Shown here piece after piece: positions 676-63,687 of a stretch of 64,000 bases of DNA. Source of the stretch: an uncultured Thioalkalispiraceae bacterium. Lineage in GTDB: Bacteria; Pseudomonadota; Gammaproteobacteria; UBA6429; Thiohalophilaceae. Within the stretch, counting starts at the first letter, position 1. The number at the start of each line of letters is the position of its first letter. The notes beneath the pieces are model-generated. The model ran no database searches. It was not told the origin of the DNA and saw only the letters and a program-made list of their open reading frames with translations. Both the position numbers and the translations under genes were made by a program. The stretch spans positions 664 through 64,663 of the forward strand of contig CAZDEC010000007.1 in the NCBI GenBank assembly GCA_964504295.1, read 5' to 3'.

Positions 676-2499
676 ATGTTTAAAGTAAGAAAAGACGAAC
701 CCGATTACGCCTACTTGCCCGATGCGAAAGCCCCGCAAGAAAACCAGTATGGCAAAAAAATAGATCTTTCTATTGGTCATAGCGAATTAACCGGCAAAAG
801 TTTAAACATTAATGGCGATAGCGGTATTAGTGATAACCCGGATCGTTATAAGCAGCACGGTTTTTATTTTAATGCCGACAACTGTATTTCCTGTCATGCT
901 TGCGAGTCAGCCTGTAGTGAAAAAAATGATCTACCGCCTTACTTGGCCTACCGTGCAGTAGGGTATGTTGAGGGTGGGACTTACCCGAGTTATACCCGTT
1001 TAAATATTTCGATGGCCTGTAACCACTGTGATAATCCGGTTTGCTTAAAAGGTTGCCCAACGCGAGCTTATACTAAATTTGCAGAATACGGTGCAGTACT
1101 GCAAGATCCCGATATTTGTTTTGGCTGCGGTTATTGCACCTGGGTTTGTCCTTACAATGCGCCGCAAATGGATATGGAAAAAGGTCATGTGCATAAATGT
1201 AATATGTGCGTGGATCGTTTAGAAGTGGGTTTGAAACCAGCTTGTTCATCGGCCTGTTTAGCGGGCGCCCTGGATTTCGGCATAATAGAAACCACACCAG
1301 AAAATCGTGACCAGCTAAAAACATCGATACCCGGTTTTCCAACTGCGGACATTACCAATCCCAATATTCGTTTTCAACAAACAAAAAATTTACCGCGCGA
1401 TATGTATCGTACTGATTCCACAGCTTTGAAGTATCATCGTAATGATGAAACCGGTGAATATGAACCGATGGTTGATGAACAACGTAAGTCATCAGAAAAA
1501 TTCTGGAATCTACGCAAATTATTGACCTCACATGAAAATGCGCATATCGCTTTTACCTTAAGTACACAAGCGGTTATCGGAGCCTTCTTTATGTTCCTGT
1601 TTGCACAGTTTATGGGTAATGACGCAGGCTTTATTGATTTTACTGCTAACATGGCAAACAGTTATATTCCCTTAATGGCGACCATGCTAGTGCTTTTAAG
1701 TTTTGGGATGGCTAAATTAAATTTACATTTAGGTCGACCACACCGTTTTTATCGTGGTTTTTATAATTGGCGGATGTCGCCGGTTAGTCGTGAAATTGCC
1801 GGGGTTTCACTGTTTTTTGCCGGTATCACAGGTTACGCTTTGTTTGCCTATTTTGATAATAGTTTTAGTAGAGCATTAGCTCAACTATCGGCGATTACAG
1901 CTTTAGTTGGTGGTGTTGCTGGCTTTTATTATATGTACAAGCTTTATCGCATTCCTGCTCGGCCTTATTGGAATCATTGGCAAACAGGCAGCAGTTTTGT
2001 AGCTAGCGCACTCGTTATGGGTGGTTTACTTATTGCGATCGTTACGAGCATAACGTATGGATTACATCTTACGGCTGCGACATTAAGCTTTACCTCAAAC
2101 TTGATTTTAGTTGGTTTGTTACTTGAAGCGATGGGTTTAGTTTTTCATGCGCGTGATATGAAACGAAGCCATAGCGAAGGTGCGGTATCTCATTACGAAC
2201 AAACAACAACCTATGGTAAGTCTTATATATTACGAAATATTTTATTGGTATTAAACATCATTGCGGTAGCGTTAGTGAGTATTTATGGATTGCAGGATAT
2301 TGCTGGAATCGCTATGGGAATTGTTCTAAGTTTATCGATACTCGCCAGCGCGGTTATCGGTCGAGCACTGTTTTATGTTTTAGTTATTCCAACAACCATG
2401 CCGGGTGCTTTCTTCTGGCGTAATAAAGGTTTTGAAGAACATGCTCGTGAAACCGGGTTAGCGGATATGCCGCAAACAGGCGTGTTGCCAAATCATTAA
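676..2499 (+). CDS. Fusion of a DmsB-like four-cluster [4Fe-4S] ferredoxin with a DmsC-type polytopic membrane anchor
   Basis: Four Cys clusters (CISCHACESAC; CNHCDNPVCLKGCP; CFGCGYCTWVCP; CNMCVDRL...CSSAC), followed by about 300 aa with roughly 8 hydrophobic helices. Sits 63 nt downstream of the Mo subunit. Confidence 0.85.
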   Translation: MFKVRKDEPDYAYLPDAKAPQENQYGKKIDLSIGHSELTGKSLNINGDSGISDNPDRYKQHGFYFNADNCISCHACESACSEKNDLPPYLAYRAVGYVEGGTYPSYTRLNISMACNHCDNPVCLKGCPTRAYTKFAEYGAVLQDPDICFGCGYCTWVCPYNAPQMDMEKGHVHKCNMCVDRLEVGLKPACSSACLAGALDFGIIETTPENRDQLKTSIPGFPTADITNPNIRFQQTKNLPRDMYRTDSTALKYHRNDETGEYEPMVDEQRKSSEKFWNLRKLLTSHENAHIAFTLSTQAVIGAFFMFLFAQFMGNDAGFIDFTANMANSYIPLMATMLVLLSFGMAKLNLHLGRPHRFYRGFYNWRMSPVSREIAGVSLFFAGITGYALFAYFDNSFSRALAQLSAITALVGGVAGFYYMYKLYRIPARPYWNHWQTGSSFVASALVMGGLLIAIVTSITYGLHLTAATLSFTSNLILVGLLLEAMGLVFHARDMKRSHSEGAVSHYEQTTTYGKSYILRNILLVLNIIAVALVSIYGLQDIAGIAMGIVLSLSILASAVIGRALFYVLVIPTTMPGAFFWRNKGFEEHARETGLADMPQTGVLPNH

Positions 2500-49298: not shown

Positions 49299-49373
49299 GT
49301 ATTTTTGCACCAAAATAATACAAATTATTAAACAATAAAAATGTCTGGAGATGCCTCCAGCATGGGAGAAGTC

Positions 49374-50558
49374 ATGGAAATTAAAACAGCAACTGATGTG
49401 CTCTTTATTCTGTTAGGAGCCATTATGGTACTCGCAATGCATTCAGGTTTTGCATTCTTAGAAGTGGGCACGGTGCGCAAAAAGAATCAGGTCAATGCAC
49501 TAGTTAAAATTATTGTCGATTTTGCTGTTTCAACCATCGGTTATTTCTTTATTGGTTATATGGTCGCCTATGGGCTTGGGTTTGGCGAGAGTGCTCAGGT
49601 TTTAGTACAAAAAAATGGCTATGAGTTAGTTAAGTTCTTCTTTTTATTGACATTTGCAGCAGCTATTCCGGCTATTATTTCTGGTGGCATTGCTGAGCGA
49701 GCGCGTTTTTACCCGCAATTGGTGGCGACTTTTTTTATTGTGGCTTTTATTTACCCGTTTTTCGAAGGTATTACCTGGAACGGTAATTTTGGTGTGCAAG
49801 CATGGATAGATAGCCAGTTTGGTGCCGAATTTCACGATTTTGCTGGTTCCGTGGTGGTGCATGCGATGGGTGGCTGGTTAGCCCTAGGTGCGGTTCTTTT
49901 ACTCGGTCGTCGATTGCCGAAGGGCGGTAGCCATTCCATTTCTCATCCTCCATCAAGCATTCCTTTTTTAGCCTTGGGCGCCTGGGTGTTAACCGTGGGC
50001 TGGTTTGGCTTTAATGTGATGTCTGCCCAAACCATTGATGCGGTCAGTGGTCTGGTGGCGCTGAATTCATTAATGGCGATGGTGGGCGGTATATTGGCCG
50101 CGTTGGTGGTGGGTAAGAATGATCCGGGGTTTGTGCATAACGGGCCATTAGCGGGTTTAGTTGCTGTGTGTGCCGGTTCGGACATTATGCACCCGATGGG
50201 CGCGTTGGTAACCGGACTGGTTGCCGGAGGACTGTTTGTTTGGGCGTTCACACAATGCCATAGCAAATGGAAAATAGATGATGTACTCGGTGTTTGGCCA
50301 TTGCATGGGTTATGTGGTGCCTGGGGTGGTCTTGCTGCGGGTATTTTTGGACTCGAAGCGTTTGGTGGTTTGGGCGGCGTGACCTTTATGTCACAGTTAG
50401 TGGGCACACTAATGGGGCTTTCTGTTGCGCTTGTAGGAGGCTTTGTTGTTTATGGTGTCATTAAAAAGATGGTAGGCATTCGTTTAACGGCAGAAGAAGA
50501 ACACATGGGTGCGGATTTAAGCATTCATAAAATTGCGGCTGAGTCGGATATTGACTAA
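49374..50558 (+). CDS. amt: Ammonium transporter (Amt family)
   Basis: GFAFLEVG, AERARF, FHDFAGSVVVHAMGGW.AL, GWFGFN and DDVLGVWPLHGLCGAWGG blocks. ATG 49374 (RBS GGGAGAA) preferred; 49341 and 49362 are possible. Confidence 0.92.
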   Translation: MEIKTATDVLFILLGAIMVLAMHSGFAFLEVGTVRKKNQVNALVKIIVDFAVSTIGYFFIGYMVAYGLGFGESAQVLVQKNGYELVKFFFLLTFAAAIPAIISGGIAERARFYPQLVATFFIVAFIYPFFEGITWNGNFGVQAWIDSQFGAEFHDFAGSVVVHAMGGWLALGAVLLLGRRLPKGGSHSISHPPSSIPFLALGAWVLTVGWFGFNVMSAQTIDAVSGLVALNSLMAMVGGILAALVVGKNDPGFVHNGPLAGLVAVCAGSDIMHPMGALVTGLVAGGLFVWAFTQCHSKWKIDDVLGVWPLHGLCGAWGGLAAGIFGLEAFGGLGGVTFMSQLVGTLMGLSVALVGGFVVYGVIKKMVGIRLTAEEEHMGADLSIHKIAAESDID

Positions 50559-50697: not shown

Positions 50698-52083
50698 TTA
50701 GCTCAATTGTTTAAGCAACAGCTGCGCTGCAAGCCCAATGCCGATGGTGAAGAGCAGCGCAATGACCCACACCAGCTTAATCAATGCCGGTGTGACCGTC
50801 GCAGTGCTCGTATCCACTGGTTCATGGCAATGACTTTGCGCCAGATACATTGGCACTATAATGCGCAGGTAAACGGCCAGTGACAATACGCTATTAAGAA
50901 TGGCGATAACGGTTAACCATAAAAAACCGGCATCAATTGCAGCACCAAAGAGTAAAAATTTACCGACAAAACCGGCCAGCGGCGGAATGCCTACCAGTGA
51001 TAAAAGGAATATCACCATGGCTACCCCCAACATGTGATTTTTGCGCCCAATACCTTTAAAGCTATCAAGCGTTCGACCCACTCGCATCACAACGGCAAAT
51101 GCCCCCAGGTTCATCGCAGCATAGGCGGCCGAAAATATAATTAAGGATTGCAGCGCGAGTGAACTCGCCCCCACCGCAACCACACCTAAAAGAAAATAAC
51201 CGGCCTGTGCGATGGATGAATAAGCTAGTAAGCGCACCACATTCTTTTGTACCAGTGCGGCGAGATAACCGTAGGTCATGGTAAGTACCGCAACCACGGC
51301 AATAATCAATGGCCAGCCTGTCGACAGCGGCATATCGCGTACGACCTGGGCAAAAGCCAGTATGGCACCAATCTTTGGTACAACAGATAAATAGGCGGCA
51401 ATGCAGAGCGGTGCGCCTTCGTATGCATCCGGTGCCCAAAAGTGAAACGGTACTAGTGATGCCTTGTAACCCAGGCCAATAATAACGGCAATAAAACCAA
51501 TAATGGCAATAACAGGCGAGGTTTCAAGCTGCCCCAGTTCACTCAGTAGTGTCGAGCCACTCCCGCCGAACCAGTAACTGAGCCCAAAAATCATAATACT
51601 GGTGGTGACCGAGCCAAACACAAAAAACTTTATCGCCGCTTCGGTCGCACTGTCATTTCGTGGGTAAGCCACCAGCGCAAAAGAAGCCAGGCCAGATAAC
51701 AAAACAGCCAGTACCAGTAACATGCTATCGCCCACACCGGCCATTAATATCGAACCCAGACTGACTAGCGTAACCAGAACATACACCGTACCTTCACGAT
51801 CACTACCGGCAAGTTCAGCGCGAGCTAATAGCAAAGACAGTATCGTTGCGGGCAGCAGGATAATTTTTCCCCATACGCTCAGCATATCAATGCGGAAAGT
51901 GCCACCAAAGACCGAGGTGTTCAGGCCAAGTAAAAGCACACTTTGCCATGTTGCCAGCAATAGCCCAACGATAGTCACGGTCAGCACAATTCGTGGGGCA
52001 CGCAGCATCTCGGCAATTAAGGCAAACACCACCGTAAGTAGGATGATGATCTCAGGGATCAGTAAGGCAAGATCTGTTTCCAT
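50698..52083 (-). CDS. Complex-I NuoN/ND2-like antiporter-type subunit
   Basis: 14-TM-like profile. KASLVPFHFWAPDAYEGAP (conserved Lys/His block of Mrp-type subunits). 1-nt start/stop overlap with the M-like gene. Confidence 0.85.
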   Translation of the reverse strand: METDLALLIPEIIILLTVVFALIAEMLRAPRIVLTVTIVGLLLATWQSVLLLGLNTSVFGGTFRIDMLSVWGKIILLPATILSLLLARAELAGSDREGTVYVLVTLVSLGSILMAGVGDSMLLVLAVLLSGLASFALVAYPRNDSATEAAIKFFVFGSVTTSIMIFGLSYWFGGSGSTLLSELGQLETSPVIAIIGFIAVIIGLGYKASLVPFHFWAPDAYEGAPLCIAAYLSVVPKIGAILAFAQVVRDMPLSTGWPLIIAVVAVLTMTYGYLAALVQKNVVRLLAYSSIAQAGYFLLGVVAVGASSLALQSLIIFSAAYAAMNLGAFAVVMRVGRTLDSFKGIGRKNHMLGVAMVIFLLSLVGIPPLAGFVGKFLLFGAAIDAGFLWLTVIAILNSVLSLAVYLRIIVPMYLAQSHCHEPVDTSTATVTPALIKLVWVIALLFTIGIGLAAQLLLKQLS

Positions 52084-53558
52084 TACAATGGCAACGCTAT
52101 GGTGGTTTTATGGATCACATCCAGCACCCAGGCTGGCGCGACACCCAGCGCAATGGTGAAGACCAATAATGGTGCCAATGCAAGTAGTTCACGCGCATTC
52201 AAGTCAGGCATGGTAGCCGTTGTCCACTTATCTCCAACTTCGCCAAGAAACACCTGTGCTATCGCTCGTAAATATAAACCGGCGGTAATAACGATACCGA
52301 GAATAGCAATAATGGCTATAGGCTCAACCTGCAATGTGGCGAGGAAAATCTGAAACTCTGCCGGGAAATGCGCCAGCCCGGGTAAACCCAGCGAAGCAAA
52401 CGCAGCCAGCACAAACGACCAGCCGAGCACCGGTACGACTTTCATTAAACCACCAAACTGATCCATGTCTCTTGTGTGGGCTCGATCCTGCAACATCCCA
52501 ACCAGCAAGAACAACGCGCCTGTCACTAAACCGTGACTGACCATTTGTAATACTGAACCATCTAACGCGGTGGCACGAATGGCGGGATCCGCTGCCAGTG
52601 CGGCAACCGCCACGCCAATAATGATATAGCCCATGTGATTAATTGAGGTATAAGCCACCAGTCGTTTGAGATCCGTTTGTGCCAGCGCGGCAAAAGCGCC
52701 GTACAATGCTGCAATTACCCCGAATACTAAAATCACTACCCCCGCTTCGCGAAAGGCATCTGGCGTCATTTGATAAGCAAACCGCACCAGACCATAGGTG
52801 CCGAATTTCAACATCACACCGGCTAAAATTACACTGCCTGCAGCCGGTGCTTGAACATGTGCGGCAGGTAACCAGGTATGAAATGGAAACACCGGCGTTT
52901 TAACCGCAAAGGTAATCAGCATGGCAATCAATGCAAGCATAGCCGCAAGTCCATCTAAGGGTGGGTTACTGATCCAGACACGCATGTCGAATGTATATGG
53001 GTCACTGCCGAGGTATAAACCCAGAATCGCCAGCAATAATGGCAGGCTGCCAAGGAAGGTATAAATAAAAAACATCAGCGCGGCACGTTGTCGGTCTTCG
53101 TGCCCCCATTGTGCAATCATAAAATACATGGACACCAGTGACACTTCAAAGAAAACGTAAAATAAAATTGCGTCCAGTGCAGTGAAGGCACCGATGGATG
53201 CCGTCTCTAACAGCAGCATCAATGCAACAAAAGCATGTGACTGCTTACGTACTTTGGCAGAATAAATAAAGGTGACAAAAAACAACAACGCAGTTAGCAG
53301 CACTAGCGGTAAGCTAATACCATCCACACCCACCCGGTAGGCCGCACCAATCGAAGGCATCCAGTCAATTTGTTCGAGCTGGGCAAAGCCGGTATCACTC
53401 ACACCACGTGACCACATCACCAGTGCACCCAGCAAAGTCACACCACTGATGACGATACCAATAGCATGAACAACTTGTGGCGATGACTTGCGCATAAGCA
53501 ACACCAGCAATGCCCCAAGCAAAGGTAGAAAGACAGTAATCGATACAATTGGATACAC
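52083..53558 (-). CDS. Complex-I NuoM/ND4-like antiporter-type subunit
   Basis: FFEVSLVSMYFMI (TM5 Glu), KTPVFPFHTWLPAAHVQAP, SINHMGY, VSHGLVTGALFLLVG. Confidence 0.88.
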   Translation of the reverse strand: MYPIVSITVFLPLLGALLVLLMRKSSPQVVHAIGIVISGVTLLGALVMWSRGVSDTGFAQLEQIDWMPSIGAAYRVGVDGISLPLVLLTALLFFVTFIYSAKVRKQSHAFVALMLLLETASIGAFTALDAILFYVFFEVSLVSMYFMIAQWGHEDRQRAALMFFIYTFLGSLPLLLAILGLYLGSDPYTFDMRVWISNPPLDGLAAMLALIAMLITFAVKTPVFPFHTWLPAAHVQAPAAGSVILAGVMLKFGTYGLVRFAYQMTPDAFREAGVVILVFGVIAALYGAFAALAQTDLKRLVAYTSINHMGYIIIGVAVAALAADPAIRATALDGSVLQMVSHGLVTGALFLLVGMLQDRAHTRDMDQFGGLMKVVPVLGWSFVLAAFASLGLPGLAHFPAEFQIFLATLQVEPIAIIAILGIVITAGLYLRAIAQVFLGEVGDKWTTATMPDLNARELLALAPLLVFTIALGVAPAWVLDVIHKTTIALPL

Positions 53559-56274: not shown

Positions 56275-57186
56275 TTAGGGAAACTCCAGTACCAGTACGC
56301 CAACAATAAAAATATTCAGCAGTGCTAACGGGATGCCGATTATCCAGCACCATGAAAGTAAATGCGCTTCACGAATACGTGGCATATAGCGACCGATGAG
56401 TAACATGGCCATGGTAACGGCCAGTATTTTAATTGCGCTCCATGCCCAGGGGGGTAATTCAAAGCCGAACAAATTAAATCCTTGCCAACCACCCAGGTAA
56501 AAAATAACCGTAGCGGCTGCCAGTGTAACGATCAAAACCAGTCGCCCAAGTCGGAAGATGGCCAACCGCATACCGCTGTATTCTGCTTCTATACCACCAG
56601 CGAGTTCACCTTTTGCAATCATCATGTTGAACGGCGGTAAAAATGCCAGTGCCATCGAGGCGACAAAAAATAATATAAAGCCCAGTGGTTGATAGGCAAT
56701 GTTCCACAGGTCGGCTTGTGAAACCACAATTTGTGTTGTTAATAATGATTCAGCACGCATGGCAACGGCAGTAATTGGCATTACAATCAGCATCGCATAG
56801 GCAATGAGTTGCCCCAGAAAACGCCAGCCGCCAATCATGGCATAAGCTCCATCTGGTCCCCAACCTGCCATCAGCAAAGCCACTAGAACATACACCAGTG
56901 CGGCATTAATAAATAATGCACCGGTGGCAAGGTCGGTGATGATTAAATCGGGTGTGAGCGGGATAACCGCCGCCGCCAGCACCGCCGACAAGAGTAAAAG
57001 CACCGGGCCAGCTTCATAAAAAATTTTATCTGGTTTGCGTGGGATAAACGATTCCCGCCCTAAAAAAGCAACCGCGGCAAAAAGGGGCGCACTGAGTTGG
57101 AAGCGGCCTTTGCTGATCCAGTCTTCGAGTACGGCAACAAAATAGGCGCCCAACAGTAAAAAAAATAAAATAAGAAAAGTGTTCAT
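56275..57186 (-). CDS. Complex-I NuoH/ND1 (HycD/EchB)-like subunit
   Basis: [29 protein letters not shown] matches the PFD..E.E.EL..G...EYSG block. The N-terminal ERK..Q.R.GP block of bona fide NuoH is not recognisable. Confidence 0.8.
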
Positions 57187-59111
57187 TGACGTATCTCCCA
57201 GGGAGATAAATCCAGTGAGCCAACCGTAACCAGCGCGTCACCGAGTTCCTGTTGATCGGTGAGTTGTTCAATGAGCGTCAGGTGTTGTGTTGAGGGTGTT
57301 TCAAGTTGTGCCGAGGTTACTTTCCCTTTATTCAGGGTTAATTGCAGAGTGGCTTGTCCGCGTGGTGTTTCAATCACGGCTTGTCCATCACCGCTGACAG
57401 TATCAGTATTATTGGTGACTGAAACCGTGGCGCTGTTCGAGATAGCTGCTTTTTGTATCAGTTCAATGCTTTGTTTGATTTCGTCCAGCCGAAGTTGCAA
57501 GCGCGCATAAACGTCACCGTTTGTTGCGGTAACCGCGGCGAATCCAAGTTCACTGTAAAGTTTGTTATTGTTTCGTGCGTCCATGTTTATTCCTGCCGCA
57601 CGTGCAACAGGGCCGAATACAGTCAGCTCTGTCTCTGTTGGCAACCTGCCTATACCCTGGCTGCGGGATTTTAATAAAGGGGTGCGTTGCAATTGTTTAG
57701 TTAAATCCTGAACGGCTTTTTTCAAATGGGTGACTTGTTGGATATTTGCCTGCATAAACGACTGCTGCAATGATGAAGCACGCTGCTTTAACCAGTCAAA
57801 ACCGGTTTGTTCTGCAAATAAGGTCAGCCAGCTTAGATGACTAACAATGCGTTCTCTTTCCAGTACAACAAGCCGGACTTTAGCCGTGCTGGTTTCAACC
57901 TTGATGCTGGCAGCATCTTCAATCGCTAAACAGGCCAGCAGCCGATAACTGTTTGGTGCAAGCGGATCCAGAGTAGTGAGTTTTTCAATAAAATCACTGG
58001 CGGGGATGGGATGACATAGTAATGACTTGTTTCCAACCAGCGTCGTCGTCTTTGCCGCAGCAACCGTATCGCCATCAAGTGTAAATGTCAGTAATAAACC
58101 CGCTGGTAAGCCCGGAAAAAAAGGTCCAAATGGTACGTCGAGCCAGTCCATAGGTAAACCATCACCGCTACGTGGCAGATTTTTGGTCACATCAATCATC
58201 GACATAAAGCCGGAATCATCGTGGTTCATACCGGATTCCATTTCAGCGTGATCATGACGGCTACTTTGAGGTTCACGTGGCTCTAAATTCATGCCGCATT
58301 CAGGGCAGGAACCGGGTTCACTTTGCACCACTTCCGGGTGCATGGGGCAAGTGTATTCAACCGCCGCATGATCCATATGTTGATGATCCTGCTGTGCTTC
58401 TATTTCACGTGGCTCTAAATTCATGCCGCATTCAGGGCAGGAACCGGGTTCACTTTGCACCACTTCCGGGTGCATGGGGCAAGTGTATTCAACCGCCGCA
58501 TGATCCGTATGTTGGGGATCATGAGAAGAATGATCGTTACTTTCCGTGTTTGGTTCAGTATGACTATGCGGAGCATTAGCCTGTACTTCACGCGGCATCA
58601 GGTTCATGCCGCATTTCGGGCAGGAGCCGGGTTCATCCTGAATTACTTCCGGGTGCATAGGGCAAACATACTCAATGCGAATTTGTAAAACCGGCGCATC
58701 AAAATCTGATACATCAGAATGAAAAGCACTCTTCGCAAGAGTTTTACGCAGTTGGTTAACTCCCTCAACAAGTTCCTGTTGTGAAAGGCCAGCGGTAATA
58801 TCAGCGGTAGGTAAGGGTAATAAATCTGTTGTTGATGTTGTCAGGTTAAACAAAACACGTGGTCGGGGCATTTGTGCATAGATCACCGCCGCTGCGTCGC
58901 GTAATGCCGCGGGCATATCACCCGCAATAAGTAAAACACTGGCGTGGCGAGGACTCGCCACAATGTTGATCCCGGCCGCTTCAATATCTAACCCGTAAGC
59001 ACGTGTGATTTCTGTCCCCGGCACAACATAGACGCCCAGATCCTGAGACATCGAAAAAGAGACTAACCGCTTTAATGCGGATATTGTTCCCTGTCGAGCA
59101 CCGGCGATCAT
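57183..59111 (-). CDS. Fusion protein: cysteine-free NuoB-like domain + three HMBD (CPMHPE...CPxCGM) heavy-metal-binding zinc ribbons + ligand-less NuoD/HycE-like domain
   Basis: B-like: [42 protein letters not shown] x3: Y(V/T)CPMHPEV(I/V)Q(D/S)EPGSCP(K/E)CGMNL(M/E)PRE. D-like: [53 protein letters not shown]...[22 protein letters not shown] upstream of ATG 59111. Confidence 0.85.
58272..58514. repeat. 132-bp (44-codon) near-perfect tandem duplication spanning HMBD modules 2 and 3
   Basis: The sequence from 58272 is repeated from 58404: 103 identical nt, one A/G mismatch (58375 vs 58507), then 7 more identical nt. Confidence 0.95.
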
Positions 59112-59655: not shown

Positions 59656-60840
59656 ATGTCTGTGCACCCTTCATCGAATCAAGGCAATTGTAATATAGAC
59701 GAGTCTGACACCCGCTTTAGAAATATTATTCCTGCCATGAGCACTCCACTGGCATCTATTTTTGGTAGTGGCTTTCTGGTTGTTGTTCCTATTCTGGCAA
59801 GCGCTGTTGGCCCTTATGCAATACTGGCCATGGTGGTGGTTGCCATTGTCGCTTTTTTAGTCGGTAAAATTGTTCGGCATAATATTTTATGTGCTGAGCC
59901 AGTACTGGCAAAGGGTAGTCAAAAATTTACCGTTATAATTGAACGACTTTCAGACTTTGCACTGGTGGCAGCTTATGTGGTTTCGGTATGCCTCTATATA
60001 CATATATTATCGTCTTTTGTTCTTTCCAGCTTCGAGCTGGATAATACGTTTAATAACAGTTTGATGACCTCGATAATAATAGGTGTTATCACTGTTATTG
60101 GTTTATTTGGTGGCTTAAAACCACTGGAAAATCTGGAGCGCTGGGCACTTTTTATTACGCTTATTATTCTTGCCGGGTTATTAGTTTTATTTGCAGTTTA
60201 TGATGTTAAACAGTTTTTATCGCAAGGATACTTTTCTTTACCTGAAATGCCGCAGCGAAGTGGCTGGGAAATTATTACCATTGTTGCCGGTACTTTAATC
60301 GTGGTGCAGGGCTTTGAGACAACCCGCTACCTGGGTGAAACATTTGATACGCTTACTCGTATTCGAGCTTCACGCTGGTCGCAATATTTTTCGTTGAGCG
60401 TTTACGTTATATTTGTTGCTTTAGCGATGCCTATTGTTTCGGTATTGAATGGGAATTATGCAGAAAACAGTCTGATAACGATAGCGGCAACGGCTTCTAT
60501 TTTATTACCTCTGCCGTTGATTATTGCAGCCAGCCTGTCACAGTTTTCGGCCGCGGTGGCCGATACATTGGCCGCAGCAGCTAATATGCAGGAAGCCAGT
60601 CAGCAACGCCTGAATACTCGTTGGGGGTACCTAATGGTGGGGGTATCGGCAATGGCTTTGGCATGGTCGGGGTCTACCTTTGAAATTATTACCCTAGCTT
60701 CAAGGGCCTTTGCTTTTTATTATTTACTACAGTGTCTGGTTGCCTTTAGTGTTTGCCGCAATATTCGTGAACGTATTTTATTCGGTTTTATTGCATTTAT
60801 TCTGGGCTTTGTTTTGTTGTTTGCAGTGCCTGCAGGTTAA
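59656..60840 (+). CDS. Polytopic (about 11-12 TM) permease-like membrane protein, possibly APC-superfamily-like; substrate unknown
   Basis: Hydrophobic periodicity throughout. N-terminal ...PLASIFGSGFLVVVPILA resembles the APC first-helix G-rich motif. Divergent from the nuoA-like gene. Confidence 0.65.
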   Translation: MSVHPSSNQGNCNIDESDTRFRNIIPAMSTPLASIFGSGFLVVVPILASAVGPYAILAMVVVAIVAFLVGKIVRHNILCAEPVLAKGSQKFTVIIERLSDFALVAAYVVSVCLYIHILSSFVLSSFELDNTFNNSLMTSIIIGVITVIGLFGGLKPLENLERWALFITLIILAGLLVLFAVYDVKQFLSQGYFSLPEMPQRSGWEIITIVAGTLIVVQGFETTRYLGETFDTLTRIRASRWSQYFSLSVYVIFVALAMPIVSVLNGNYAENSLITIAATASILLPLPLIIAASLSQFSAAVADTLAAAANMQEASQQRLNTRWGYLMVGVSAMALAWSGSTFEIITLASRAFAFYYLLQCLVAFSVCRNIRERILFGFIAFILGFVLLFAVPAG

Positions 60841-60875: not shown

Positions 60876-60997
60876 TTATTTAATGTTAAATAAAGCTAAG
60901 CTGACTTTTTAGATAGCTCGGATGAAATAAGGTGTCATCCGGGCTACGGTTAAAACAAGTTTTTTTCGTTAAATTAAATCAACAAAGGAGAGACATC

Positions 60998-61165
60998 ATG
61001 GTTACCGATCCAGTATGTGGTATGACAATTGAAGAAACTAAAGCGGCAGCGACAGAAGAGTATCAGGGCACAACCCTGTATTTTTGCTCAGATAGTTGTC
61101 ACAGTAAATTTCAGGCAAATCCGACTCAATATGTAAAGGCTGAAACGACATCTGATTCTGCGTAG
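60998..61165 (+). CDS. YHS (TRASH-type) metal-binding domain mini-protein, 55 aa
   Basis: DPVCGMTIEE......EYQGTTLYFCSDSCHSKFQANP is the YHS signature. ATG 60998 has a strong RBS (AAAGGAGAGacatcATG). The GTG 60932 extension is rejected. Confidence 0.85.
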   Translation: MVTDPVCGMTIEETKAAATEEYQGTTLYFCSDSCHSKFQANPTQYVKAETTSDSA

Positions 61166-61236: not shown

Positions 61237-61351
61237 GTTTCCTTATAGCTATATTGTTTTATCAGGCTTTTTCCAATGCTTGAAATGTAAATTATTAAAG
61301 CCCGAGACATTGTTGCCGATATCAATACCGACAACTTGGGAATGTTTTAAC

Positions 61352-62470
61352 GTGGAAAAAGCAACAACAATATTAGCGGTGGATGATGACGAAGATATCC
61401 TCAATCTTTATCGTTTACATGCCGAAGAACAGGGTTATAAAATTTTCGTTAGCAGTAGTGCCGTTAAAGCGCTGGCGATTCTTGAGCAGGATAAGGTCGA
61501 TTTAATTATTTCAGATATTTTAATGCCTGATTTAGATGGCTATGAATTTTGTCGACAAGTAAAAGAAAACCCGAAAACACAAAAAATTCCCTTTGTATTT
61601 GTTTCTGCTATGACTTCATTAGAAGAGCTGGTGACTGGCTATGGTTTGGGAGCGGATGACTATCTTACAAAACCCATTGAGCATGAACAGTTTCTTTTAA
61701 AAATTAAACATATCTTATCAGTGAGCAAAAAAAATGAAGAAGTTCAGGAACAATTAGATACTTATTATAAAACGGCTATGCAGGCCATGAATTATTCAAG
61801 TGAAATGGGTGTCATACTCGAATTTTATAAAGTTTGCGTTGCAGCGAAGTCTTTTAGAGAATTAGCAAATTATATTTTTATGACAATGAAGCAGTTAGAA
61901 CTTTATTGTTCTTTTCAGATTTATGATTTAAACGGACAGGCAATGGGTTATACGGAGCAAGGAGAGATCCCGCCACTCGAGACTGATATTATGTTACTAG
62001 CAAAAAAACAGTCTCGATTTTATGATTTTGGTGTACGGACTATTGTGAGCTACGATAACTTCTCCTTGCTTATAAAAAATATGCCGGTTGAGGATAAGGA
62101 AAAATACGGTCGATTAAAAGATATTTTAGGCACACTTTGTGATGCAATTAGCTCCCGCGTTGAGGTATTACTGACAAACGATTCTTTAATGCAAAAACAA
62201 CAGGTTGTTGAAAGTGTCAGTGTAACCATTATGGATGTTGATTCGTCTTTTTCGCAGTTACAGAAACAGAATGTAACTGCAATTGAAAATATGCTGGAAC
62301 AGATTGAAGAAGCCCTACTTATTTTGGGGTTAACTGAATTTCAGGAAGAAAATGTTCTGGGTATTGCCAAAAAATGTTTAGCTGAAACGAATAAAGCCTT
62401 TTATGAAGGCGTAGAGATTAATTGTAAGCTTGAGAAGCTTCGAGAACAGTTGAGTACAATATTGAACTGA
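61352..62470 (+). CDS. REC receiver + about 250-aa uncharacterised C-terminal domain (paralog A)
   Basis: ILAVDDDEDIL...IISDILMPDLDGYEF...FVSA...DDYLTKP. A GTG start at 61352 gives 372 aa, exactly the length of the downstream paralog, and aligns VEKATTILAVDDD with MSRKTTILAVDSD. Confidence 0.8.
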   Translation: MEKATTILAVDDDEDILNLYRLHAEEQGYKIFVSSSAVKALAILEQDKVDLIISDILMPDLDGYEFCRQVKENPKTQKIPFVFVSAMTSLEELVTGYGLGADDYLTKPIEHEQFLLKIKHILSVSKKNEEVQEQLDTYYKTAMQAMNYSSEMGVILEFYKVCVAAKSFRELANYIFMTMKQLELYCSFQIYDLNGQAMGYTEQGEIPPLETDIMLLAKKQSRFYDFGVRTIVSYDNFSLLIKNMPVEDKEKYGRLKDILGTLCDAISSRVEVLLTNDSLMQKQQVVESVSVTIMDVDSSFSQLQKQNVTAIENMLEQIEEALLILGLTEFQEENVLGIAKKCLAETNKAFYEGVEINCKLEKLREQLSTILN

Positions 62471-62568: not shown

Positions 62569-63687
62569 ATGAGTAGAAAAACAACTATTTTAGCGGTTGA
62601 CAGCGATAATGAGGTTTTGAGATTGTACCGTCAACACGCTCAGGATCAGGGCTATCAGACCGTGGTTGCGAATGATGCTGAAACAGCACTCACTATTTTG
62701 CAACAAGTGAGTGTTGAGTTGATTATATCGGATGTTCATTTCCCAGGGCTTGACGGGCATGAGTTTTGTCGTCAAGTGAAAGCAATTGATAAAACCAGAA
62801 ACATCCCTTTTATTTTCGTTTCAACCGTTACTGAACTCGATGAGTTAGTGAAAGGATATTCTTTAGGTGCGATTGATTATATTCCTAAACCGATTATTTA
62901 TGATGAACTAATATTAAAAGTTAAATCTCTGGTAAAAACGTTTCAACACAATGGTCAGGCTGTAGAACAGTTAGAGGCTCATCACAAGGTTGCCATGGAG
63001 GCAATGTCTTATTCAAGTGAGTTAGGTCAGGTACTTGAATTTTACAAAGCATGCGAAGCGTCAAAGGCATTAGACGATTTAGCTAATTTTCTGTTTGTCA
63101 CTACCAGCACTCTGGGGCTAAGCTGTTCGTTACAGATTTATTCAGACAATAATCAATCTATTGGCTATAGCCATTCGGGCTCACTTTCACCTATTGAATC
63201 AGAAATTATGCTCGCTGCGCGCAACCAGCCGCGATTTTTTGATTTTGGTAAACGCACAATCCTTAATTACAAGCGTTTTTCTTTGTTAATTAAAAATATG
63301 CCAATTGATAACCCTGAAAAATATGGTCGTATAAAAGATATTTTAGGTTCTCTTGCCGATGCGCTTGAGTCGCGTATGGATGTTTTATTATTTCGCAGTT
63401 CTGTCAAACAAAAACAAAATGTAGTGGATATGGTTGGCAATACGATGATGGACATTGATTCATCTCTTATGAATTTGCAAAAAGAAAATGTAGCCGCACT
63501 TGATGATATGATAGAAAATCTGGAGGAGGCATTATTAATACTCGGTTTAACCGAGCATCAGGAGAATAGTATTATGGATATTTCAAGAACTTGTTTAAGC
63601 CGAATTAACAATGCTTTTTATGTGGGCGTCGGAATTTCTGAAAAGCTTGAAGCATTGCGTCTGCAGTTGGCTAAGACGGTTGATTAA
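62569..63687 (+). CDS. REC receiver + about 250-aa uncharacterised C-terminal domain (paralog B)
   Basis: ILAVDSDNEVL...IISDVHFPGLDGHEF...FVST...IDYIPKP. The C-terminal domain is colinear with paralog A (LEFYK, FSLLIKNMP, EKYGRIKDILGSL, EEALLILGLTE). Confidence 0.85.
   Translation: MSRKTTILAVDSDNEVLRLYRQHAQDQGYQTVVANDAETALTILQQVSVELIISDVHFPGLDGHEFCRQVKAIDKTRNIPFIFVSTVTELDELVKGYSLGAIDYIPKPIIYDELILKVKSLVKTFQHNGQAVEQLEAHHKVAMEAMSYSSELGQVLEFYKACEASKALDDLANFLFVTTSTLGLSCSLQIYSDNNQSIGYSHSGSLSPIESEIMLAARNQPRFFDFGKRTILNYKRFSLLIKNMPIDNPEKYGRIKDILGSLADALESRMDVLLFRSSVKQKQNVVDMVGNTMMDIDSSLMNLQKENVAALDDMIENLEEALLILGLTEHQENSIMDISRTCLSRINNAFYVGVGISEKLEALRLQLAKTVD

Follow-up and report, generated by a model that had tools for sequence, protein, structure and literature searches.

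What does a complex I-like operon do once its peripheral arm has parted with the ligands of electron transfer? The question is raised by a minus-strand operon in a 64,000-nucleotide stretch of contig CAZDEC010000007.1 (hereafter the window) from an uncultured gammaproteobacterium of the Thioalkalispiraceae. Its genes stand in the order nuoA, B-HMBD-D, H, J, K, L, M and N, each with a match to the corresponding Pfam family, and the second of them encodes a fusion in which a NuoB-like and a NuoD-like domain are joined through three copies of the heavy-metal-binding domain HMBD. An earlier note on this DNA, made from the letters alone, took the fused peripheral (B-D) module to be stripped of its redox function and turned into a metal-binding module, and this view was upheld on every test that we ran. 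We propose that the operon encodes a non-redox soft-metal machine derived from complex I, most likely a Cu(I)/Ag(I) exporter driven by the proton-motive force (PMF), a reading that we would put, on the strength of the sequence comparisons described below, at a probability of roughly 0.55.

Loss of redox ligands in the B-D fusion protein

The fusion gene occupies an open reading frame (ORF) of 642 aa (57183-59111) and is tightly packed behind the nuoA-like gene. The span and length given in the earlier note were borne out, with the correction that the gene lies on the minus strand, as the plus-strand frame of the same span is full of stops. The Pfam models named in that note were recovered in part: HMBD (PF19335) was found in three copies (E=5e-38; 129 bits versus a gathering cutoff of 23.6) and Complex1_49kDa as a partial match (E=2e-26), and Oxidored_q6 gave no match in the N-terminus at E<0.1. 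The NuoB-like character of the N-terminal domain was established by other means, namely by the matches of residues 41-90 in PDB, which are exclusively to NuoB-family chains (phmmer; MbhJ at 3e-5, NDUFS7 at ~1e-4), and by a profile of 15 diverse N-domains, which reached the NuoB family at 8e-9 with 43 NuoB-family chains dominating its matches. The C-terminal part, likewise supposed from the outset to be NuoD-like, is alignable over 340 aa with MbhL, NdhH and NuoD. In an AlphaFold2 model of the fusion (predicted local distance difference test (pLDDT) score 79, predicted TM-score (pTM) 0.71) the end domains score ~90, the HMBDs ~80 and the linkers, which are disordered, below 50; a Foldseek search with this model retrieved 49-kDa/NuoD/MbsL structures for the C-domain, with a target TM-score of up to 0.78 and MbsL as the best match. 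Both domains fall far below the cutoffs of the NCBIfam models (23.5 bits versus 116 for NuoB and 105.7 versus 360 for NuoD). Compared with NuoD of Escherichia coli, the D-like domain (57186-58208) is missing ~45 aa around RIGG and ~30 aa near the C-terminal beta-sheet.

Direct reading of the protein places its first Cys at position 150, with none in residues 1-149, precisely as had been claimed for the first ~150 aa. A word-indexed search yielded at least 114 full-length homologues (all with a 147-aa N-domain, 1-11 HMBDs and a conserved C-domain), and a Cys-free NuoB-like domain is present in 78 of these 114 relatives. Because the MAFFT alignment does not reliably position the CCxxE motif of E. 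coli NuoB against the family, the argument rests on these direct Cys counts; the alignment to NuoB ends just short of the canonical third-Cys motif. Since the NuoB-like domain is Cys-free, the iron-sulfur cluster N2 cannot be ligated.

The quinone site has fared no better. The E. coli NuoCD residues H220, H224 and Y273 (the equivalents of Thermus H34, H38 and Y87) are replaced by F in 109, by P in 112 and by P in 110 of the 114 relatives, respectively, in agreement with the proposed loss of the His loop and the Tyr. The same columns speak to the concern that conserved ligands might have been mis-aligned by eye: the His/His/Tyr positions are occupied by F/P/P across the relatives. As for the NiFe-binding CxxC motifs of group-4 hydrogenases, their predicted absence was confirmed at both ends, the N-terminal CGIC of MbhL being aligned to PLAP and the C-terminus of the fusion being free of Cys. 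None of nuoC, nuoI, nuoE, nuoF and nuoG was found in the operon of the window (ORFs and Pfam), and ORF clustering detected neither NuoC nor NuoI in any of 80 related loci, a statement that covers the loci and not the whole genomes. Overall, this is a B-D module without Fe-S, quinone or NiFe ligands.

Retention of the pump residues in the membrane arm

Each membrane subunit family was aligned with its E. coli Nuo counterpart, using 46-69 homologues per subunit. The equivalents of NuoL E144, K229, H334, H338, K342, K399 and D400 are kept in at least 96% of the homologues (most of them in all), and those of NuoM E144, K234, K265 and E407 and of NuoN K217, K247 and K395 (the lysines of transmembrane helices (TM) 7, 8 and 12) are invariant. 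Also kept are NuoK E36 and E72 (E37 and E75 here, each between invariant Met), NuoA K46, D79 and E81 (K40, D73 and E75 here; 46 homologues) and the equivalents of NuoH E71, D79, R148, E220, E228 and K274. Departures from the canonical pattern are found at NuoH E157, where the family has Ala or Ser, and at the TM5 Glu of NuoN (E. coli E133), which is Leu or Val in 60/60 homologues, so that an ion pair is broken in the antiporter-like subunit beside NuoK/J. Two further peculiarities are an Asn at residue 187 of the NuoH-like protein (56275-57186), a position that is Asp in 58 of 61 relatives (E. coli D213, TM5-6 loop), and the replacement of the TM1-2 loop motif YE(C/S)GxEP of NuoA by ATAGQLSRDP.

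The mean pairwise identity of the membrane subunits (69-82%, highest at 82% for NuoA and NuoK) exceeds that of the fusion domains (59%). All of them match Nuo models of NCBIfam best, rather than Mrp or hydrogenase ones, with A, H, J, K, L and N below the curated cutoffs and only NDH_I_M above its own. Among solved structures, the NuoA-like and NuoK-like subunits find their best matches in NdhC and NdhE of cyanobacterial NDH-1 (5e-17 each), ahead of proteobacterial complex I. The sequences thus contain hints that the chassis may derive from an 11-subunit-type complex. A promoter and terminator scan of the intergenic region upstream of nuoA gave scores no better than those of shuffles.

A methionine-rich E-channel

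The most conspicuous rewriting of the membrane arm concerns Met. Family-specific invariant Met occur where E. coli has V, I, L, A, F or Y, and they cluster in NuoH, A, J and K, which together carry some 30 invariant thioethers; at the family-Met positions, Paracoccus, Thermus, E. coli and cyanobacterial sequences have the canonical V, I, L, A or Y. The median Met content is 9.0% in NuoJ (versus 3.3% in E. coli) and 9.7% in NuoK (versus 5.0%), and NuoL, M and N are not enriched. NuoJ has 16 of these family-specific Met, and its TM3 reads QIMMMATEMSIMAIFMVMFMMDPGG as compared with the canonical VVYxGAIxVLFLFVxM. The NuoJ TM3 motif (MMMATEMSIMAIFMVMFMM) shows only 1-2 conservative substitutions in the plasmid-borne copies of Roseovarius (Alphaproteobacteria) and Rubrobacter (Actinomycetota). 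The canonical Tyr (E. coli Y59) is replaced by Met, and E52, E65 and D79 are newly invariant, the two Glu being located at the positions of E. coli Y49 and A62. In NuoK, Met 31, 34, 63, 69, 72, 76 and 95 are invariant and lie on either side of both conserved Glu; in NuoA, the segment FDMEMAYM stands against the canonical FDVETVFL, with H59 and M97 also invariant; in NuoH, the invariant Met are 106, 132, 136, 143 and 261. As judged from these alignments, the subunits of the E-channel are remodelled with invariant Met beside the conserved carboxylates.

Metal-binding tether and the FMSM segment

The three-repeat HMBD signature reported in the earlier note stood the test, and the label of zinc ribbons attached to it did not: the repeats share homology with the metal-binding core at the N-terminus of CopA from Legionella (LpCopA; PDB 8ovl, 3rfu), an Ag+/Cu+ site. 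All six notable positions of the LpCopA core (C42, M44, H45, C56, C59 and M61) are kept in the repeats and are invariant in 34 aligned homologues. A nuclear magnetic resonance study showed that the LpCopA core binds Ag+, and by inference Cu+, via M44, C59 and M61 (PMC11970713). We infer from this homology that the HMBDs of the fusion are putative Cu(I)/Ag(I) binders.

HMBD copies 2 and 3 plus their linker are part of a 132-bp tandem duplication (58272-58514; 1.8 copies) with 99% DNA identity. Such near-identity indicates that the number of HMBDs is changing through unequal recombination of recent date, in keeping with the 1-11 copies found in relatives. Most representatives of the D-domain family are devoid of any HMBD. 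In the HMBD-less relatives (n=50), the NuoB-like domain and the D-domain are separated by a tether of 12-309 aa that is composed of 17% His, 8% Met, 11.5% Asp and 16% Gly and contains 'MDHG'-type repeats. HMBDs are therefore one tether option and not a defining feature of the family, whose common architecture consists of a NuoB-like domain, a variable tether, an invariant FMSM...M...W segment and a NuoD-like domain. Family alignments place the invariant FMSM...M motif at the start of the D-like domain. The tether between the B-like and D-like domains is predicted to be disordered and bears cytoplasmic units of the Cu(I)-binding type, HMBDs in the window and His/Met-rich repeats in most relatives, with a putative role in soft-metal binding. 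The features of the operon are collected in Table 1.

Table 1. Genes of the operon and parts of the fusion protein, by position in the window
Feature	Position	Strand	Characteristics
NuoA-like, 120 aa	59124..59486	(-)	Pfam Oxidored_q4 3e-24
Fusion protein, 642 aa	57183..59111	(-)	NuoB-like domain, three HMBDs, FMSM motif, NuoD-like domain
NuoB-like domain, aa 1-146	58674..59111	(-)	Cys-free; phmmer MbhJ 3e-5, profile 8e-9, pLDDT ~90
HMBD copy 1, aa 147-174	58590..58673	(-)	C150, M152, H153, C164, C167, M169; Pfam HMBD
HMBD copy 2, aa 208-235	58407..58490	(-)	C211, M213, H214, C225, C228, M230; Pfam HMBD
HMBD copy 3, aa 252-279	58275..58358	(-)	C255, M257, H258, C269, C272, M274; Pfam HMBD
FMSM (aa 302-305), M321, W323, then NuoD-like domain to aa 642	57186..58208	(-)	Invariant columns; Foldseek NuoD fold
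NuoH-like, 303 aa	56275..57186	(-)	Pfam NADHdh 2e-52
NuoJ-like, 173 aa	55753..56274	(-)	10.4% Met; Pfam Oxidored_q3
NuoK-like, 103 aa	55445..55756	(-)	10.7% Met; Pfam family, conserved E37, E75
NuoL-like antiporter subunit, 624 aa	53574..55448	(-)	Full length; Pfam, NCBIfam
NuoM-like antiporter subunit	52083..53558	(-)	Pfam; NCBIfam NDH_I_M 501 bits versus cutoff 264
NuoN-like antiporter subunit	50698..52083	(-)	Pfam, NCBIfam

Distribution and genomic context of the family

How widely the fusion occurs, and whether its number of HMBDs varies, had been raised from the single sequence. A genome scan with one genome per species placed relatives in 251 genomes, the HMBD copy number runs from 1 to 11 among the full-length homologues of the word-indexed search, and an exhaustive phmmer search with the D-domain against 1.8 billion representatives returned 142 clusters at E<=1e-30. 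Carriers include Gammaproteobacteria (Thiogranum, Thiohalobacter, Alcanivorax, Halomonas, Marinobacter, Salinisphaera), Alphaproteobacteria (Brevundimonas diminuta ATCC 11568, Phaeobacter, Seohaeicola, Pelagibacterium), Betaproteobacteria, Rubrobacteraceae and Chloroflexota, and the family is also present on 12 plasmids. The closest locus belongs to a gammaproteobacterial metagenome-assembled genome (MAG) from a vent, with 79% identity in the D-domain. ORF clustering of the 80 related loci (disregarding the spurious antisense clusters 6, 28 and 29, as well as fusions split at N-runs, cluster 12) revealed one conserved unit of A, fusion, H, J, K and three antiporter-like genes. A pseudogene or relic was considered and rejected, given the presence of the unit in 251 species genomes and the 69-82% identity of its membrane subunits.

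The neighbours of the unit vary, and those that recur belong to metal homeostasis: genes for CopA (a multicopper oxidase), CopB, a P1B-ATPase with an HMA domain, MerR and a regulator of the OmpR type. At least one metal-homeostasis gene lies within 10 kb in 24 of 81 loci. On the Roseovarius indicus plasmid pRIdsm_02, the operon is located between copB/copA/CDF/azurin-like genes and a Tn7-like module. On a plasmid of Rubrobacter marinus, it follows genes for a P1B-ATPase, CsoR-type regulators, multicopper-oxidase fragments and a DUF305 protein, with CDF and ArsR genes nearby. A carbonic-anhydrase-like partner (as expected for a CO2-hydration, DAB/CupA-like role) was not seen among the annotated conserved neighbour clusters, to which no dedicated search was added.

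Proposed function and mechanism

No redox input is left to this complex, so that the driving forces are limited to the PMF and the gradient of the substrate. PMF-coupled transport of Cu(I)/Ag(I) is suggested by the combination of an intact proton chain, cytoplasmic capture modules of the Cu(I) type tethered where the former quinone site opens, and an E-channel lined with thioethers and carboxylates; export is favoured by the location in resistance islands and by the co-expression with cop genes that has been reported (see below). In the mechanism that we envisage, the tether would capture cytoplasmic Cu(I) and hand it via the FMSM site to the former quinone cavity at the D/B/H interface, from which the ion would travel outward along the thioether-and-carboxylate-lined E-channel formed by H, A, J and K. 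Inward proton flow through the antiporter-like subunits would pay for this movement, reversing the coupling of complex I in the manner of Mrp with Na+, and several H+ per Cu+ could provide a driving force of the order of that of ATP hydrolysis. A more far-reaching version of this proposal is advanced tentatively, at a little short of even odds: the operon would represent an unrecognised class of heavy-metal pump with PMF-reversed complex I coupling, in which Cu(I)/Ag(I) replaces quinone as the charged ligand in the quinone cavity (Q-cavity) and E-channel and is expelled via the thioether-lined NuoH/A/J/K path, and which has spread on plasmids and resistance islands in at least four phyla.

The conserved pump residues could also serve a metal-gated cation/proton antiporter or proton conductor, with Na+, K+ or H+ as the substrate and the tether as a Cu sensor that releases autoinhibition, particularly as Mrp antiporter-like modules are generally known to run without redox input. 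Such a device would leave unexplained both why a path for hard cations or protons should have gained ~30 invariant thioethers across NuoH, A, J and K and why NuoH, NuoA and the B-D module, all missing from Mrp, have been kept. Its gating has a precedent in LpCopA, where the metal-binding core is a copper sensor that relieves autoinhibition of the ATPase (PMC11970713), and we consider it unlikely on balance. The architecture being direction-neutral, the same parts might instead form a PMF-driven importer that delivers Cu(I) to cytoplasmic acceptors, with the tether as a receiving chaperone, and several loci of vent sulfur oxidisers (including this window) are indeed without nearby resistance genes. 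That cation entry into a negative-inside cell should need no multi-proton machine, that the operon sits in copper-resistance/efflux islands of plasmids, and that a cassette of such a kind is co-induced with cop resistance genes (PMC8233155) make import quite improbable.

The capacity of the tethers, with up to 11 HMBDs or ~300 His/Met-rich residues, would suit a membrane-anchored cytoplasmic copper buffer in which the tether sequesters Cu(I) and the Nuo arm is an anchor or a relic. An anchor would hardly require seven membrane subunits in which the Lys/Glu/His pump residues are strictly conserved, nor would these subunits be expected to be more conserved than the metal-binding protein itself (69-82% versus 59% identity), so that we give this explanation slightly less credence still. 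Lastly, Eddie et al. proposed that copper may feed a redox pump (PMC8233155), which here would amount to a cuprous:quinone oxidoreductase with bound copper as the electron donor or relay, and copper sites can in principle transfer electrons. This runs counter to the missing Fe-S ligands and quinone His/Tyr, to the stabilisation of Cu(I) by tri-sulfur Cu(I) sites and to the futility of Cu(II) production in a thiol-rich cytoplasm. As the Cu(II)/Cu(I) and ubiquinone potentials are generally known to leave little driving force, such a pump is highly improbable. None of these rivals explains the conserved pump residues together with the Met-rewritten core as well as PMF-driven export of Cu(I)/Ag(I) does.

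Several observations weigh against the export reading. About 70% of the loci have no metal gene inside 10 kb, and this window offers a small YHS-domain ORF as its sole neighbour with a link to metals. A number of family-specific Met are found in NuoM and NuoN as well, the pattern thus not being exclusive to the E-channel, and Met as one continuous conduit is a conjecture from the alignments. The E-channel of complex I has no established periplasmic exit, which makes the complete metal path conjectural as well. Sequence does not reveal the direction of transport. Finally, the homologous domain of LpCopA is a sensor and not a delivery device (PMC11970713).

Comparison with known systems

The nearest relative in composition is complex I, especially the 11-subunit NDH-1 type, with which the operon shares the order of A, H, J, K, L, M and N, the NuoB and NuoD folds, the Lys/Glu/His of L and M, key lysines of N, both NuoK Glu and the D/E pair in NuoA. 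It differs from complex I in the lack of NuoC, I, E, F and G, in the fusion of B and D, in the loss of the N2 Cys and of the quinone His/His/Tyr, and, within the membrane, in the TM3 Tyr of NuoJ (Met here), the TM5 Glu of NuoN (Leu/Val here), the Met-rich E-channel and the mostly sub-cutoff NCBIfam scores. Mrp, which exchanges cations (Na+/K+) for protons via antiporter-like and NuoK-like subunits, is functionally the nearest to the mechanism proposed here. It has no homologues of NuoH, A, B or D and no metal-binding domains, in contrast to the present operon, which has all of them and whose NuoL, M and N score higher on Nuo than on Mrp models of NCBIfam.

Among named classes with a NiFe-less large subunit, Ehr complexes (Mbx/Mbs) come nearest. 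They combine a NuoD/hydrogenase-like large subunit devoid of Ni-Fe ligands with antiporter-like membrane subunits, and are still viewed as redox-coupled ion translocators (PMC6349859). The present system falls under this loose descriptive definition, having a NiFe-less large subunit and antiporter-like subunits, but it differs in the absence of any Fe-S ligands, in its Nuo-type membrane arm and in its metal-binding tethers; the Nuo-type arm and the lost Fe-S ligands would argue against ordinary Ehr membership. With LpCopA and CusCBA it shares an HMBD with a conserved Met-Cys-Met site and neighbourhoods containing copA/copB/cus-type genes, and its membrane Met clusters beside a carboxylate resemble the relay of CusA. 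Unlike these pumps, it has neither a P-type ATPase nor an RND fold, and its energy source would be the PMF.

The architecture had seemed to be undescribed, which proved to be only partly the case. In Marinobacter atlanticus, a seven-gene 'nuoADHJKL' cassette, one gene of which bears the annotation 'NiFe-hydrogenase III large subunit', interrupts the copper-resistance operon and is co-expressed with the cop genes (Eddie et al. 2021, PMC8233155). These authors speculated on copper redox as an energy source and described neither a B-HMBD-D fusion nor the ligand loss or a Met-rich channel (PMC8233155). The M. atlanticus cassette, whose gene ACP86_11560 is likened here by description and not by sequence, is probably the same system; a family member in a Marinobacter locus of our set (L024) adjoins a P1B-ATPase and a CDF gene. 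A literature search on HMBD, NuoD, complex I, copper, Mrp and Ehr, within the library that it covered, retrieved no dissection of the architecture, the Marinobacter transcriptome paper being the sole relevant match. The 'NuoBD' of an Asgard preprint was considered and set aside, as it refers to ordinary NiFe-type subunits.

Other genes of the window and of related loci

The YHS/TRASH-domain ORF mentioned above (60932-61165, plus strand; Pfam YHS 5e-15) encodes a putative metal-binding protein and is situated 1.4 kb upstream of the operon; a homologue is found near the operon in L040. Divergent from the operon, a gene at 59656-60840 (plus strand) encodes a 394-aa multi-pass membrane protein with a weak match to DUF373 and no NCBIfam match, homologues of which adjoin the operon in 14 of 81 loci, mostly of vent Gammaproteobacteria. 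In each of two paralogues (61280-62470 and 62569-63687, plus strand), a receiver domain at the N-terminus is accompanied by ~250 uncharacterised residues at the C-terminus, and in the closest loci (L001-L003) the operon is flanked by homologues of these proteins. A P-II-like protein of ~107 aa (Pfam P-II 4.5e-14) is encoded near the operon in Alcanivorax and Marinimicrobium loci (L055, L056, L059, L060, L061, L027 and L040), and in L059 and L061 its gene immediately precedes the nuoA-like one; in the window itself, an Amt ammonium transporter gene (49341-50558) is located just downstream of nuoN. At the far end, a gene at 676-2499 (plus strand) encodes a 607-aa protein with 4Fe-4S dicluster domains and a DmsC-type membrane anchor, unrelated to the operon.

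In the Roseovarius indicus plasmid pRIdsm_02 (L081, 13996-16014), the RefSeq start of the fusion gene is at a Met inside the first HMBD (CP|MHPE), and an unannotated NuoB-like domain lies in frame immediately upstream of it. Truncated gene starts of this kind may mask the B-D fusion in other records.

Significance

The system described here is a variant of the complex I superfamily that is widespread and, by way of plasmids and Tn7-like elements, mobile; it is common in bacteria of vents and the sea and in those under metal stress. If our reading is true, nature would here provide a complex I that has lost its redox module, keeps the Q-cavity, the E-channel and the antiporter chain, and has the key TM3 of NuoJ/ND6 rewritten, a stable, cofactor-free system in which to address the coupling of the quinone site to the antiporters. 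As a pump for Cu(I)/Ag(I), it would form a third class by energy source, next to the P1B-ATPases and the RND-type Cus system. At present, its genes are labelled as 'NADH-quinone oxidoreductase subunit', 'Ni,Fe-hydrogenase III large subunit' or 'heavy metal-binding domain-containing protein', and such labels can inflate the respiratory or hydrogen metabolism that is inferred in MAG studies.

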